A DNA stretch of 44,688 nucleotides, from positions 1-44,688 of the forward strand of contig JBLHTS010000001.1 of NCBI GenBank assembly GCA_047627695.1. The letters run 5' to 3'. The notes under the pieces are model-generated. The model was not told the DNA's origin. It worked only from the letters and a program-made list of their open reading frames with translations, and did not search any database. This document shows, in pieces, positions 20,730 to 26,282 of the stretch (position 1 is the first letter of the stretch; each line of letters starts with the position of its first letter). Source of the stretch: Yoonia sp. GTDB lineage: Bacteria; Pseudomonadota; Alphaproteobacteria; Rhodobacterales; Rhodobacteraceae. A program made the translations under genes and the position numbers.

Positions 20730-22551
20730 GTGAAGCGTGACTTTCACCACCTACTAGGACGGCTTCACATTTTGCAGACAACGGACTTGCATATGCATCT
20801 ATTGGGCTGTGATTATTTTGTGGACCAACGCGATGATCGCCTTGGGTTGGCCAGTCTCGTGGATACGATCGAGGAATTAGGGACCGAAAACACTGACGCG
20901 ACTCTGCTGTTTGACAACGGCGATTTTCTGCCGGGAAACCCATTAGCTGACACACTGGCCGCAACATCGAACGCAGAAGAAACCCACACGATGATCGCGG
21001 CGATGAATTGTTTGCGCTATGATGCGATTACACGCGGAAATCAAGAATTTGACTATGGCGTACCTTTCTTGTGTCGCGCGCTTGGCCGCCTTCGCGCGCA
21101 TGTTGTCAGTGCGAATATCCGCTGCTTCGATGAACCGGCTTTGGCCTCGTCGTTTCGCATCCTTGCGCGCGATCTGCGTGTGATGACGGAGTGATTTGCT
21201 CCATCAAAATTGGCGTCACCGGATTTGCCCCGCCACAAATCGCAGATCGGGATTCCACATCTTTGACTAACCATATTGGGGTCGACGACATCATGAAGGC
21301 AGCAAGACGTGTCGTGCCCCAGATCCAAGCAGCTGGGGCAGATGTGGTGGTCGCCCTGTGTCATTCCGGCATAGGCGAAGCCGATGAAAGCCCGTTCTTG
21401 GAGAGGGCTGCCGTGCCATTGGCATCCGTTGACGGCTTGCATGCCTTGCTTGTCGGCCGCACTCACGAGCAGTTCCCCAACGCCCCGCTACAGCGCAAGT
21501 CGACCCAAATGCAGGAACGCCTTGCACAAAACCAGCGGTGATGGCCGGATTTTACAGCACATCGCTTGGTATGATTAACCTTGATCTGGCGTGGAAATCG
21601 GTAGGGTGGACCGAGCAGGATCAGTCCGCGCGACTTCAAAAACCAAAGAATGCAATGCGCCATAAAAGCGCGTATCGACGCGGAATCGAACTACTGGCGA
21701 CAAAGGCCCATACCGCCACGCTGACACATATTCGAAAACCTATTGCGAAGACTGCGGTACTGATCGCAAACTACTTTGCGACGATCCAGCCTGATCTAAG
21801 CATACAGCTTTTAGCCCAGGCGATGTAGGATGCGTTACCCGCGAATTTGCGCGGCACACCGATCCTTGCCGCTGTTTCACCGTTTCAGTTTGGTGGACGC
21901 AATGGTTTGGGTCATTTTATCAACATTCCTAATGGGCAGATAACCCTGCGCGAAGCTGCCGCCATCTTTCTCTATGCCGATACGCTTTGTGCAGTGCAAC
22001 GCAGCGGTGCACAGATTAAGGATTGGCTTGAACGTGCAGCCGGACACTACAACCAGATCAGCCCAGGCACGCTCCGTCAGGATTTGCTAAACCCTCAAAG
22101 TGCTGACTATAACTGCGATGCAATTTAAGGGCTGACTTACGAAATTGATTTGACGCAACCCGCCCGCTTTGACTTCTGGGGCAGAGAGATTACGCCCTCT
22201 GCCAGTCGTATTCGGCATATTGCCCTCAATGGGCGCGCCGTGGCTGCTGACGATGTTTTCATTGTGGCGACCAATAGTTTTCGGGCAAGCGGTGGCGGTG
22301 GTTTTGCGCCGATCCCACAAGCGGATCTTGTGTGGAAGACGCAAGACAAACTCCGCGATATATTAATTGGATCACTGCAAAAGCGTGCCTTGATCGCGGA
22401 TGCAAGCTATCCTGTGTGGCGTTTCAGTGCAATTGTGGGCCCGCATGCCCAGTTCCAGACTGTATCGCAGGCCATTCAGCATGCCGCGCACGCGATCACC
22501 CATGATGGGCTTGGCAAGAATGGATTTGAAACCTACAGCTTGGCCTTCTGA
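20730..22551 (+). pseudogene. cpdB: 2',3'-cyclic-nucleotide 2'-phosphodiesterase / 5'-nucleotidase family (CpdB-like), fragmented
   Basis: TTDLH, DNGDF, GNQEF, LCHSG and VATNSFRASGGG motifs are spread over five ORF fragments. Frameshifts at about 21177 and 21485; in-frame stops TAG 21826-21828 and TAA 22126-22128. Confidence 0.88.
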
Positions 22552-22555
22552 CGCC

Positions 22556-22584
22556 TTGCAGAGCGTCTGCTCCTGTCTTATATG
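22556..22584 (+). promoter_or_regulatory. Putative promoter of ffs
   Basis: TTGCAG-N17-TATATG just upstream of the RNA. Confidence 0.45.
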
Positions 22585-22589
22585 ACTTT

Positions 22590-22684
22590 TGAGAGGTTGG
22601 CGCGGGCGAGCGCCTCGCCAACCTGGTCAGATCCGGAAGGAAGCAGCCAAAACGAGCCCCGCTTGGGTCGTTGTCAACCTCTCA
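22590..22684 (+). ncRNA. ffs: Signal recognition particle 4.5S RNA
   Basis: Helix-8 motif GGTCAGATCCGGAAGGAAGCAGCC with GGAA tetraloop; terminal helix TGAGAGGTTGGC/GTCAACCTCTCA; close to dnaX. Confidence 0.93.
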
Positions 22685-22745
22685 CCTTTAATTTGCATCG
22701 CAAATTAAAGGAAAGGGACAGAGTTAAATTGCATAGCAATTTGAC
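22685..22745. promoter_or_regulatory. Two tandem related palindromes (core TTGC-ATN-GCAA); candidate operators overlapping a -35 TTGACG
   Basis: CCTTTAATTTGC-ATC-GCAAATTAAAGG (22685-22711) and GTTAAATTGC-ATA-GCAATTTGAC (22723-22745). TTGACG at 22741-22746 and AACAAT at 22763-22768. Confidence 0.55.
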
Positions 22746-22792
22746 GGAGTCCCACCTGGTGAAACAATGTCCACACAAAAAGGAGGAAGTTT

Positions 22793-22834
22793 ATGTTTGT
22801 CGCTAAAAATACCCTCCCGGTCCGGGTGCGCTGA
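22793..22834 (+). CDS. Putative leader peptide MFVAKNTLPVRVR (13 aa) upstream of rsgA
   Basis: Consensus SD AGGAGG (22781-22786) 6 nt before ATG; TGA at 22832-22834; 82 nt upstream of the TTG start of rsgA. Too short for the ORF track. Confidence 0.7.
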   Translation: MFVAKNTLPVRVR

Positions 22835-22916
22835 AGCAACTTTCGCCCGCCCCTCCGGTTCCCGCTGACTGCCACAGGCCGCCAGCGCATATCCCTTTTG
22901 TGACGAGGACGATCCA

Positions 22917-23948
22917 TTGACAGATTTCACCCGCGCCGACCTTGGATGGTCGCCATTTTACATGTCCCAACTTGAAATCGAAGAGCTGGAAACCCTTACC
23001 CCTGCCCGCATTGCAACCGTTCACCGCGACCGCGTTATTGGCTTTTCTGACATCGGTCCGCTTGAAATGACCCTTGATCCCGGCATCACGACTGCCGCTG
23101 TCGCCGTAGGCGATTGGGTGCTGTGCGCGGTAGAACAACACCGCCTGACCCGCGTTTTTAAACGCCAAACAGAGCTGACGCGCGGCACCGAATATCACAC
23201 GGGTGACAAGCAGCTGATCGCCGCAAACCTTGATACGCTTTTCATCACCTCATCGTGCAACAACGATTTCAACCCTGCTCGCCTGGAGCGCTACCTTACC
23301 CTTGCGCATGACGCGATGATCACGCCTGTTATCTTACTGACCAAAGCCGATCAATGTGACGATCCCGACAGCTATGTGGACCAAGCCCGCCAGCTTGGGC
23401 GCAACCTTGAAGTGATCGCCTTCGACGCCAAGAACGATGATGTTGCCGAGGTTTTGGCCCTATGGTGTGGCAAAGGGCAAACAGTCGCTTTAGCCGGATC
23501 TTCTGGCGTCGGCAAAACGACCGTTGCGAATGCTTTGACCGGTGGCAATGCCCTGACCCAAGACATCCGCGAAGACGATGCACGTGGGCGGCATACGACC
23601 ACAGGTCGGTCGCTGCACCGCATGAAAACAGGCGGTTGGCTGATCGACACCCCCGGTATGCGCGGGCTTGGCGTGGCAGAAGTCGCGTTCGGGATCGACG
23701 CAACCTTTCCCGAAATTTCGGAACGCGCCATGCAATGTAAATTTCGCGACTGCGAGCACGAATCTGAGCCGGGTTGTAAGGTGCAGGCAGGGATTGCGTC
23801 CGGCGATATTGACCCCGACCGGTTGGAGCGTTTCAGAAAGCTTAAACGCGAGAACGAACATGCGACCCAGACGATCGCGCAGTCACGCGAACGGGGCCGC
23901 AAGCAAGGCAAAATCTATCGGGCAGCCATCCAGAAAAAAAGCCGCTAA
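22917..23948 (+). CDS. rsgA: Ribosome small subunit-dependent GTPase A family (circularly permuted GTPase, RsgA/YjeQ/EngC)
   Basis: AVGDWV OB-fold motif, G4 TKAD, G1 GSSGVGKTT, G2 GRHTT, G3 DTPG, Zn finger CKFRDCEHESEPGC. TTG start with SD GAGGA at 22905-22909. Confidence 0.93.
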   Translation: MTDFTRADLGWSPFYMSQLEIEELETLTPARIATVHRDRVIGFSDIGPLEMTLDPGITTAAVAVGDWVLCAVEQHRLTRVFKRQTELTRGTEYHTGDKQLIAANLDTLFITSSCNNDFNPARLERYLTLAHDAMITPVILLTKADQCDDPDSYVDQARQLGRNLEVIAFDAKNDDVAEVLALWCGKGQTVALAGSSGVGKTTVANALTGGNALTQDIREDDARGRHTTTGRSLHRMKTGGWLIDTPGMRGLGVAEVAFGIDATFPEISERAMQCKFRDCEHESEPGCKVQAGIASGDIDPDRLERFRKLKRENEHATQTIAQSRERGRKQGKIYRAAIQKKSR

Positions 23949-24430
23949 GCAGGACCGACATCTTGCATCGCCCAATCCATCTGTGCGTCTGTTTCAACAG
24001 CGCACGGGCGAATGCCACGCAGCCGCACAAGTGCGGCGTCAGGGTATTCGCCCGCCGCAATCATCGCACGCAACACCATCATTCCAGAACGTCCGCAGCC
24101 CCCAAGGCAATGCACCAAGACGCGACCATTGCCGGCAAGCGTTTCCAAAACGCGCTGGCAAACATCATCCCAATCCATCCCCTCTGGCACGCCAAAATCA
24201 GCTACAGGCAAATGCAGCCATGCAATCCCTCCATCGGCAAGATCAGACCCAAGCGTGCCTACGCCTTTGCGGTCCAGCTCGGCTTGGGTTGTCATAGTCA
24301 GAACCAGATCAGGCCTCCATGACAAAAGATGCTGCCAATCTGTCCCATAGTGCCGCGTGCGCCCCGGCATCGGTGACAATGCCAAAGTACCGCTACCCAC
24401 GGACAAGCTATAAATCGCAAACTCAATCAC
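23945..24430 (-). CDS. Dual-specificity / protein-tyrosine phosphatase family protein (CDKN3-like)
   Basis: HLPVADFGVP, HCLGGCGRSG (CX5R) and RPCAVET motifs. GTG start at 24430 with SD GGAGGA. Confidence 0.88.
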   Translation of the reverse strand: MIEFAIYSLSVGSGTLALSPMPGRTRHYGTDWQHLLSWRPDLVLTMTTQAELDRKGVGTLGSDLADGGIAWLHLPVADFGVPEGMDWDDVCQRVLETLAGNGRVLVHCLGGCGRSGMMVLRAMIAAGEYPDAALVRLRGIRPCAVETDAQMDWAMQDVGPA

Positions 24431-24536
24431 GTATGATCCTCCGCCCGCCCTAAGTTGAGATGCACTGCATTCCGGTGGACCAATCAGTATCACCCGCATA
24501 ACCTATTGCCACGACCGAATCCTTGCGAAAGCCGCT

Positions 24537-26282
24537 ATGACCGATCAACCAACCTATCAAGTGCTCGCCCGTAAATACCGGCCTGAAACCTTCGCCGATA
24601 TGGTTGGGCAGGACGCCATGGTGCGCACTCTCAAGAATGCGTTTGCTGCCGACCGGATTGCACAAGCCTTCATCATGACGGGTATTCGCGGCACCGGCAA
24701 AACCACGACAGCGCGGATCATCGCCAAAGGCATGAACTGCATCGGATTGGATGGCACTAGTGGCGCGACGACCGAACCGTGCGGGAAATGCGAACATTGC
24801 GTGGCAATCATGGAAGGGCGTCATGTGGACGTCATGGAAATGGACGCCGCATCGCGCACAGGTGTGGGCGATATTCGTGAAATTATTGATAGTGTCCATT
24901 ACCGCGCGGCCTCTGCCCGCTTTAAGATCTATATTATCGACGAAGTTCACATGCTGTCCAAGAACGCGTTTAACGCACTGTTGAAGACGCTTGAAGAACC
25001 GCCAGAGCATGTAAAATTCATCTTTGCGACAACCGAAATTCGGCAAGTTCCTGTAACGGTACTATCGCGCTGCCAGCGGTTTGATTTGCGCCGCATTGAA
25101 CCTGAAACGCAGATCGCCTTGCTGCGCAAGATCGCTGCTGCCGAAGGCGCTGAGATTACGGACGAGGCGTTGGCGCTGATAACCCGCGCTGCCGAAGGTT
25201 CTGCGCGTGATGCCCAATCCCTGCTGGATCAGGCGATCAGCCATGGCGCTGGCGAAACATCGGCCGATCAAGTGCGTGCGATGCTTGGCCTTGCTGATCG
25301 CGGGCGGGTCCTTGATCTATTCAATATGATCCTCAAAGGCGAAGCTGCCGCCGCCCTAACCGAACTGTCTGGCCAATATGCTGACGGTGCCGATCCGGTG
25401 GCCGTTTTGCGCGATCTCGCAGAGGTGTGTCACTGGATCAGCGTGATCAAAATCACTCCTGAGACGGCCGAAGACCCGACCGTCAGCCCGGACGAGCGTA
25501 CACGCGGCCAAGCAATGGCCGCCGATCTGCCGATGCGTGTGATGTCACGGATGTGGCAAATGCTGCTCAAGGCACTCGAAGAAGTCGCAATGGCCCCTAA
25601 CGCCATGATGGCCGCCGAAATGGCCGTGATCCGCTTGACGCATGTGGCAGATCTGCCCAGCCCCGAAGAGCTGGTGCGCAAACTACAAGACGCGACACCG
25701 CCACCCAGCGGCCCATCAGGTGGACGCCCTGCGCCGCAAGATGGCAGTACAACCGCGATAGCCAGCACCCCAGCGCCGACATATATGGGTTCAAGCGGGC
25801 CAAGCGCATCTGGGGCGCAAGCGGCTGTGGCGCTGCAGACAGAGGCGCTTCAGCACTATGCGCGGTTCGAAGATGTGGTCGAGCTGATCCGCAGGCACCG
25901 CGACGTGAAATTACTGGTTGAAGTTGAGACCGGCCTGCGGCTGGTCAGCTATCAACCTGGCCGGATCGAAGTGAACCCGACTGAAGACGCTGCACCCGAC
26001 CTGATGGGTCGTCTTGGTGCGCGTTTGCAAGCTTGGACTGGTAACCGCTGGGCCATCAGCTGGGCCAAGGGTGACGCGCCCACGATTGCAGAAACGCGCG
26101 ACGCTGCTGAAAACGCGATCCGTCACGAGGCCGAACAACACCCGTTAGTGCAAGCCGTGATCGCCGCCTTTCCCAAGGCCAAAATCACCGAAATTCGCAC
26201 CGAAGCTGAAAAGACGCTTGAGGCACTGACCGACGCCCTTCCTGAAGTTGATGAGGAGTGGGACCCGTTCGACGAAGATTGA
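24537..26282 (+). CDS. dnaX: DNA polymerase III subunit gamma/tau
   Basis: LARKYRP, GIRGTGKTT, CGKCEHC, EMDAASRTG, IIDEVHML, ALLKTLEEPP and SRC motifs. Confidence 0.97.
   Translation: MTDQPTYQVLARKYRPETFADMVGQDAMVRTLKNAFAADRIAQAFIMTGIRGTGKTTTARIIAKGMNCIGLDGTSGATTEPCGKCEHCVAIMEGRHVDVMEMDAASRTGVGDIREIIDSVHYRAASARFKIYIIDEVHMLSKNAFNALLKTLEEPPEHVKFIFATTEIRQVPVTVLSRCQRFDLRRIEPETQIALLRKIAAAEGAEITDEALALITRAAEGSARDAQSLLDQAISHGAGETSADQVRAMLGLADRGRVLDLFNMILKGEAAAALTELSGQYADGADPVAVLRDLAEVCHWISVIKITPETAEDPTVSPDERTRGQAMAADLPMRVMSRMWQMLLKALEEVAMAPNAMMAAEMAVIRLTHVADLPSPEELVRKLQDATPPPSGPSGGRPAPQDGSTTAIASTPAPTYMGSSGPSASGAQAAVALQTEALQHYARFEDVVELIRRHRDVKLLVEVETGLRLVSYQPGRIEVNPTEDAAPDLMGRLGARLQAWTGNRWAISWAKGDAPTIAETRDAAENAIRHEAEQHPLVQAVIAAFPKAKITEIRTEAEKTLEALTDALPEVDEEWDPFDED

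Follow-up and report, generated by a model that had tools for sequence, protein, structure and literature searches.

A conserved upstream open reading frame and predicted competing helices in the leader of an accessory rsgA gene of Rhodobacteraceae

Introduction

The leader ORFs of ermC and ermD are grouped with rli80, the leader of hflXr, as macrolide-type leaders, and R/K-x-R/K is the general macrolide arrest motif. In Listeria monocytogenes rli80 (14 aa) precedes the gene for an accessory paralog of a ribosome GTPase and acts by transcription attenuation; its RLR motif is described as a hallmark of macrolide leaders, and mutation of its start codon gives OFF (PMC6310831). The leaders toiL (of toiL-topAI in Escherichia coli), vmlR and cplR share a different logic: the downstream ribosome-binding site (RBS) is occluded in a manner dependent on the upstream ORF (uORF), the signal is an early or start-codon stall and the uORF start lies in a hairpin, with the toiL uORF itself pairing with the RBS such that a stall anywhere opens it (PMC12121999, PMC10201436). 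In Pseudomonas aeruginosa the short leader PA5471.1 precedes armZ (PA5471), a gene induced by antibiotics that target the ribosome; full translation of the leader gives OFF and an amber codon at position 3 gives ON, and transcription attenuation via a terminator is proposed (PMC13041342, PMC12057347). The targets of toiL, vmlR and cplR are a toxin-antitoxin pair or an ABC-F protein.

RsgA is usually regarded as a housekeeping GTPase of 30S maturation. The E. coli protein is described as a 30S-stimulated GTPase with a role in the maturation of this subunit (PMC5499641). An extra RsgA expressed under translation-targeting antibiotic stress is SCO6149, a paralog in Streptomyces coelicolor: it is listed at 68.4-fold in the tetracycline-treated wild type over the tetracycline-treated wblC deletion, with a ChIP enrichment of 29.0 for the transcription factor WblC (PMC7157823, the entry in Table S2).

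Here we describe the leader of an rsgA gene in a contig of Yoonia sp. (JBLHTS010000001.1; 'the window' denotes the whole stretch of 44,688 nucleotides analysed), which is very likely a conserved, ribosome-dependent uORF attenuator on an accessory RsgA. An uORF or attenuator of rsgA is not described among the literature matches listed, a search that left most subscription papers and the supplements of RNA-motif surveys and bioRxiv preprints outside its scope; this agrees with the original prediction, which knew of no such control, and the switch is apparently unpublished.

Results and discussion

The rsgA locus and its neighbourhood

The perfect Shine-Dalgarno sequence (SD) and 13-codon ORF upstream of a TTG-started rsgA, with which the original prediction began, are both present (Table 1). 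A scan of 21500-24500 with Rfam at E up to 1 recovers the SRP RNA alone, and no cis-regulatory family for the leader. The promoter candidate is weak: the scan at the leader found one such pattern, and 2.1 are expected in shuffled sequences, hence no excess over chance. The SRP RNA, this candidate and the competing helices described below had not been part of the original prediction. The palindromes between ffs and the leader may possibly be elements of the ffs 3' end or of a terminator; outside this region a single site of the genome matches them, weakly and in part (E 0.058), and similar single hairpins occur 3' of ffs in many relatives.

Table 1. Features of the ffs-rsgA region in the window
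Feature	Position	Strand	Basis and remarks
SRP RNA, small (ffs)	22590..22687	+	Rfam RF00169, 52.2 bits (gathering 40); same strand, upstream of leader
Two 10-bp palindromic hairpins after ffs	22687-22709 and 22723-22745	.	Fold; related to each other
Promoter candidate, Sigma-70-like (TTGACG, 16 nt, TG-extended AACAAT)	22741..22768	+	Pattern scan
Segment 0, uORF Shine-Dalgarno AGGAGG	22781..22786	+	Sequence; conserved
uORF, 13 sense codons MFVAKNTLPVRVR	22793..22834	+	ATG at 22793, TGA at 22832-22834
Segment 1a (CCCTCC), complementary to the uORF's own SD	22812..22817	+	Consensus helix; conserved, unpaired with segment 2
Segment 1b (Pro-Val-Arg-Val-Arg codons), partner of segment 2 in predicted ON fold	22817..22831	+	Duplex -18.4 kcal/mol
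Segment 2, switch strand, with anti-RBS heptamer at 22849-22855	22844..22858	+	
Spacer hairpin between segments 2 and 3	22863..22887	+	Similar hairpin in most relatives, sequence variable
Segment 3, rsgA ribosome-binding site GACGAGGA, partner of segment 2 in predicted OFF fold	22902..22909	+	
rsgA, 343 aa, accessory clade of RsgA/YjeQ GTPases	22917..23948	+	TTG start at 22917

Upstream, a gene for a 2',3'-cyclic-nucleotide phosphodiesterase/5'-nucleotidase (20730-22551, plus strand) is split over about five ORF pieces, of which the N- and C-terminal ones match the family; it is likely a pseudogene. Downstream, a dual-specificity/tyrosine-phosphatase-like ORF (23945-24499, minus strand; Pfam PF22785, PF22784, PF05706) is convergent with rsgA with a 4-nt overlap, and is followed by dnaX at 24537. 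Two contigs of the same genome, C98 and C121, share near position 2261 an identical short ORF and the start of a 600-aa ORF, which suggests duplicated assembly sequence.

An accessory clade of RsgA

The encoded protein scores 135.2 bits against TIGR00157 (cut-off 100) and 151.4 against Pfam RsgA_GTPase (PF03193; cut-off 30, E 2.9e-44), and is the single copy above the cut-off in its genome. Its translation aligns with solved RsgA over residues 80-310 and contains TKAD, GSSGVGKT and DTPG followed by CxFxxCxHxxEPGC, which we take to be the circularly permuted G motifs and the Cys/His zinc site. Against PRK12288, the equivalog of the housekeeping enterobacterial protein, it reaches 146.8 where the cut-off is 360. 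In a FastTree phylogeny of 165 rows, with close Yoonia sequences thinned, the RsgA proteins of E. coli and Listeria fall outside a 162-row clade containing that of the window, a placement that carries a long-branch warning. The nearest named relatives are from Yoonia, at 93-95% protein identity.

The distribution of RsgA is patchy: scoring the top candidates per genome, matches were found in 77 of 150 family genomes at E 0.001 (four of them weak only) and in 21 of 200 genomes of the class at E 1e-15. Judged from these sequences, RsgA is an accessory protein in these bacteria, its gene usually lying just 3' of the SRP RNA. There are matches in 193 plasmid records, 70 of them from Rhizobium, although some are housekeeping copies on large replicons. 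Copies with the leader are scattered over a proteobacterial clade of 146 rows (SH support 99), within which whole groups have lost it: a 15-row group that includes Rhizobium plasmid copies (with one stray uORF call), Octadecabacter and the Y. vestfoldensis group.

Several side observations concern individual copies. Plasmid copies from Rhizobium, Phyllobacterium, Bosea and Paracoccus group together in a leaderless clade. On a Lysinibacillus plasmid (NZ_CP130332.1, 1480-3002), an accessory-clade rsgA precedes a fosfomycin resistance gene of the fosM family by 20 nt. An internal TAA in two rsgA matches (G029:C2:1718341-1719371 and G065:C33:67910-68926) suggests broken copies in some relatives.

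A conserved uORF precedes rsgA

The original prediction asked for a test of whether an SD and a short ORF recur upstream of orthologous rsgA genes, and they do. We used a strict pattern (SD, ATG, 10-16 codons, 70-190 nt upstream), which is present at 28 of 29 loci of the genus (one split-gene locus having been dropped) and at 35 of 60 loci of the family (58%), these being one per genus and the strongest matches among the 77 matching genomes; as a control, it precedes 8 of 2,464 long ORFs of the window's genome (0.3%). The remaining 25 family loci lack the strict pattern. Among the best 30 loci of the genus, 29 have an SD and a uORF of 11-13 codons. The uORF before rsgA is real and occurs far above chance. 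Comparable uORFs are also found before 10 of 23 rsgA loci of other alphaproteobacterial families, before several gammaproteobacterial copies (five loci) and before one rsgA each of Bacillus and Streptomyces, with leader complementarity outside Rhodobacteraceae judged by eye; the housekeeping rsgA genes of E. coli and Listeria are without such a uORF. One Rhodobacteraceae RsgA subclade (five loci) has an SD with 3-codon uORFs (MSW, MSR, MPC), where a GC-rich hairpin after the uORF replaces the 12-codon leader; at one further locus the uORF has seven codons.

The leader appears confined to rsgA in the searches made. By eye, no second leader of this type was seen among 126 sites with an SD and short ORF from a pattern scan of the window's genome. 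A sequence-only model of the leader (R1) recovered the rsgA leader alone in that genome and nothing else under E 0.03 in five genomes. In 101 family genomes, 24 of its 26 matches were at rsgA loci and the other two at the starts of unrelated genes, a weak test with 44-150 candidates scored per genome. A regulon sharing the leader is accordingly unsupported, within the limits of this weak test.

Mutually exclusive helices in the leader

We compared pairing in 44 leaders: 36 from the 60 family loci, at each of which a uORF had been detected (24 uORF-less loci being excluded), six named Rhodobacteraceae and two Yoonia. They were selected by uORF and not by structure, with rsgA starts chosen by script and two corrected by hand. 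Two duplexes compete for segment 2. The duplex of segments 1b and 2 (1b:2) averages -21.2 kcal/mol in cognate against -17.8 in non-cognate combinations (34 of 44 leaders, z -7.3) and beats its own shuffles in 40 of 44; that of segment 2 with the RBS (2:RBS) averages -11.7 against -9.8 (34 of 44, z -5.6) and beats its own shuffles in 35 of 44. The helix of the uORF SD with segment 1a (0:1a; 1a being nt 17-21 of a 12-codon uORF) beats own-sequence shuffles in 39 of 44, with a cognate z of -2.8. For two control pairings z was positive, at +0.9 for segment 2 with codons 1-6 and +0.6 for segment 3 with 1b; since the genomes are related, all these leader z-scores are overstated.

Segment 1b extends from uORF nt 22 up to the stop; the signal of pairing with segment 2 sets in at nt 22, and codons 2-6 show none. 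Compensatory pairs are found at nt 23 (G-C 25, A-T 7, C-G 4, G-T 4) and nt 27 (A-T 11, G-C 8, C-G 8, G-T 4), with compensatory types at nt 29 also. Segment 1b (codons 8-9 onward) keeps an almost constant spacing from the start codon, while the spacing between the stop and segment 2 varies. Thus, in the relatives, a leader with mutually exclusive helices, one over the uORF and one hiding the rsgA RBS, is well supported by comparison. RNAalifold on eight Yoonia leaders returned the 0:1a helix and a small hairpin in the uORF only, missing the long-range helices and finding no two-sided change; such a miss is expected for competing folds and is uninformative. Single-sequence folding of the window's leader was no better than that of shuffles (z 0.29).

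Predicted polarity of the switch

The effect of a ribosome on the uORF was modelled by equilibrium folding with everything blocked up to 15 nt from the first P-site base, co-transcriptional kinetics lying outside the model. As a mean of the 44 leaders, opening the rsgA RBS costs 5.2 kcal/mol when the leader is ribosome-free; with the P site in codons 1-3 the cost is 5.0-5.5, codon 4 gives 6.0, and the positions from codon 5 through the last give 7.3-8.7. In 37 of 44 leaders the cost is smaller with the ribosome at codon 1 than with it at the last codon, and in four it is larger; the same trend is seen in 62 mostly Yoonia leaders. With segment 1 shuffled, -1.5 of the -3.2 kcal/mol shift is retained, such that about half of the modelled switch is non-specific (p 8e-7 for the real leaders against the control). 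Once the ribosome reaches the last codons, the strand that would open the rsgA site is hidden, and the modelled cost consequently rises from about 5 to 8.7 kcal/mol. Late stalling on the uORF is hence predicted to repress rsgA, a polarity opposite to that of the original prediction, in which a stall at R-V-R or at the adjacent stop was the inducing event. Of its attenuator reading, the conserved regulatory uORF before a non-universal rsgA, very likely ribosome-dependent, stands; arrest at R-V-R or the stop as the inducer does not.

The reading we favour, and consider probable, is that the 140 bases before rsgA act as a translational attenuator: rsgA would be off while ribosomes load on and traverse the uORF, and on when loading is late or the ribosome stalls at codons 1-3. 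A ribosome beyond about codon 4 would cover 1b, leaving segment 2 to pair with the rsgA RBS; if 1b were free when segment 2 is transcribed, 1b:2 would form first and the RBS would stay open. The 0:1a hairpin would then hinder reloading of ribosomes and hold the ON state. The predicted signal would be poor early translation, as with few active 30S subunits, in the cold or under drugs trapping ribosomes at start codons, and not a peptide motif; the outcome would be a feedback loop for a 30S maturation factor. The 3-codon uORFs of one subclade fit with sensing at the first codons. The anatomy of the switch is well supported, since sequence comparison recovers the uORF, the fixed distance from its start to 1b, the 1b:2 and 2:RBS pairings and the fold-back of 1a onto the uORF's own SD; the polarity comes from modelling only.

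The same helices can be read in another way, in which the ribosome-free leader is OFF through 0:1a plus 2:RBS, and not ON as in the attenuator set out above, so that only a ribosome parked at the start codon turns rsgA on, as with toiL, vmlR and cplR; the leader would then sense tetracycline-, pleuromutilin- or lincosamide-type drugs. The conservation of the 0:1a helix is consistent with this, as are the minimum-energy folds of several ribosome-free Yoonia leaders, which consist of 0:1a and 2:RBS. So too are tetracycline footprints, which end at +16 to +18, just short of 1b (PMC12121999), and the cplR uORF, which is sequestered in a hairpin and inactive when its start codon is mutated (PMC10201436). 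Across the 44 leaders, however, the ribosome-free state is no more closed than the codon-1 state (5.2 vs 5.5 kcal/mol; codon 1 lower in 15 and higher in 22, p 0.33), and we regard this alternative as unlikely.

Transcription and the ffs gene

Control might instead be mainly transcriptional: ffs read-through would be terminated by Rho or processed, a ribosome on the uORF would mask a C-rich site, and the helices would be secondary. The spacer is indeed C-rich (33 C vs 19 G in the window; 1,320 vs 798 in 46 relatives). Moreover, in 24 of 78 leaders only 17-33 nt separate the end of ffs from the uORF, scant space for a promoter of its own, and this proximity makes read-through from the ffs promoter a plausible source of the leader transcript. 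An ffs gene lies within 330 nt upstream of rsgA at 28 of 36 family loci with the leader versus 6 of 24 without. The covarying 2:RBS pairing nevertheless points directly to translation initiation, and a simple pattern scan of 21500-24800 detected no plus-strand intrinsic terminator. As the main layer of control we therefore rate transcription as improbable, though transcriptional and translational layers could coexist.

The R-V-R ending as a probable RNA constraint

In the original prediction rsgA is induced when ribosomes stall at R-V-R, as in macrolide arrest, or at the stop next to it, and a conserved C-terminus of this type was to be sought in orthologous leaders. Within the Yoonia clade a terminal R-x-R is present in 38 of 54 leaders and a terminal Arg-TGA in 54 of 54, and the RLR of the hflXr leader described above provides a precedent. 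Yet R/K-x-R/K occurs in just 5 of the 44 family-level leaders, in which the commonest last residue is Ala (14). Among 49 distinct uORFs of the Yoonia clade, the codon at the first Arg position is CGG in 32, GGG in seven, TGG in seven, and CAG, AGG and GGC in one each, the residue having become Gly, Trp or Gln in 16. Where it is Arg, the codon is CGG or, once, AGG; CGC, CGT and CGA never occur at this position, although 73% of all Arg codons in the genome are one of these three (CGG accounts for 17% and CGC for 46%). The residue changes thus keep the GG bases while synonymous change is almost lacking, which indicates a constraint on the RNA and not on the residue. The last codon is CGC in 49 of 49. 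Ala at codon 9 is present in 40 of 44 leaders, written with all four codons, the third base of which also covaries with the partner strand. The terminal Arg-TGA and this Ala may reflect some peptide-level constraint.

The R-V-R ending itself looks like a by-product of RNA pairing and no macrolide sensor; as an arrest motif it was rejected on its 5/44 frequency, the codon pattern and the folding model. The anti-RBS heptamer lies 15-21 nt past the stop, beyond the roughly 12 nt of the assumed footprint, and the last-codon state is the most closed in the model. Macrolide-type arrest as the inducer is therefore very improbable. That the uORF and helices are chance or vestigial, without a regulatory role anywhere in the family, is hardly credible: several clades no longer have the leader, and both the window and its closest relative carry a degraded form, but the enrichment over the control, the compensatory changes and a frame and position fixed across genera speak against it.

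Comparison with known systems and significance

In its predicted polarity the rsgA leader comes closest to PA5471.1-armZ; the targets differ, and where a terminator is proposed for armZ, the rsgA switch strand pairs with the downstream RBS. With toiL, vmlR and cplR it would share the uORF-dependent occlusion of the RBS, an early or start-codon signal and a uORF start in a hairpin. However, the intermediate strand in the rsgA leader inverts the toiL logic such that late stalls are predicted to close the site, and the target is a 30S assembly GTPase. As with rli80, a leader ORF of about the same length stands in front of the gene for an accessory ribosome-GTPase paralog, but the Arg motif of the rsgA leader is not conserved as a peptide. 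The likeness to SCO6149 lies in an extra RsgA under translation stress; its control differs, being exerted by WblC.

RsgA was found in about a tenth of the Alphaproteobacteria searched, and roseobacter copies usually lie behind a conserved, predicted ribosome-sensing leader. If the inferred polarity is true, cells would gauge their own initiation capacity and summon a 30S factor on demand; this would add a new class of target for uORF attenuation and allow a direct test of whether subunits damaged by cold or drugs are repaired by this second clade of RsgA. The natural leader variants in marine strains (intact, weakened, deleted and 3-codon) provide ready comparisons.

The window's allele and variants from ice metagenomes

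The window itself departs from the consensus of its relatives. At the position of the anti-RBS heptamer, 37 of 47 close relatives have CCTCGTC; the window has GCCCCTC, which differs by three substitutions without a gap, ruling out a deletion of segment 2. The substitutions break three of seven pairs of the OFF duplex 2:RBS, which at -7.8 against a median of -14.2 kcal/mol is weaker than in 46 of 47 close relatives (energies for 28-37 C, not for sea-ice temperature), while the ON duplex 1b:2 is preserved (-18.4 vs -17.5). This leader gives a flat profile in the switch model: opening costs 5.4 with the ribosome at codon 1 and 4.0 once it is at the last codon. Given the weakened OFF helix, the modelled copy is probably leaky or retuned.

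All eight sequencing runs containing half or more of the region's words are labelled ice metagenome, two of them possibly being where the DNA came from, and no RNA run containing the region is among the matches listed. Runs X3 and X8 yield gap-free contigs with the window's segment 2 allele, and a second strain has substitutions of its own there, so an assembly error is unlikely. This second strain, seen in X3, X4, X5 and X8 (22782-22926), has 17 differences, among which are a uORF substitution of Arg for Pro and a weaker anti-RBS; its OFF duplex is -8.9 vs a median of -13.8, and the DNA between ffs and the uORF SD differs.

The window lineage may have lost repression, or its leader may have been readjusted to the cold, in which weaker helices form nonetheless. 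A bolder and rather doubtful proposition is that the accessory, often plasmid-borne RsgA clade would be a stress-inducible factor for 30S repair or antibiotic tolerance under cross-phylum uORF switches gauging the speed of initiation (30S quality), and that sea-ice Yoonia de-repressed it by erosion of the anti-RBS helix as a cold adaptation. In the sister closest to the window in the tree (L032, 2427-2503) the uORF is kept, segment 2 and most of the spacer are lost, leaving 34 nt from stop to start, and the rsgA start is ATG.
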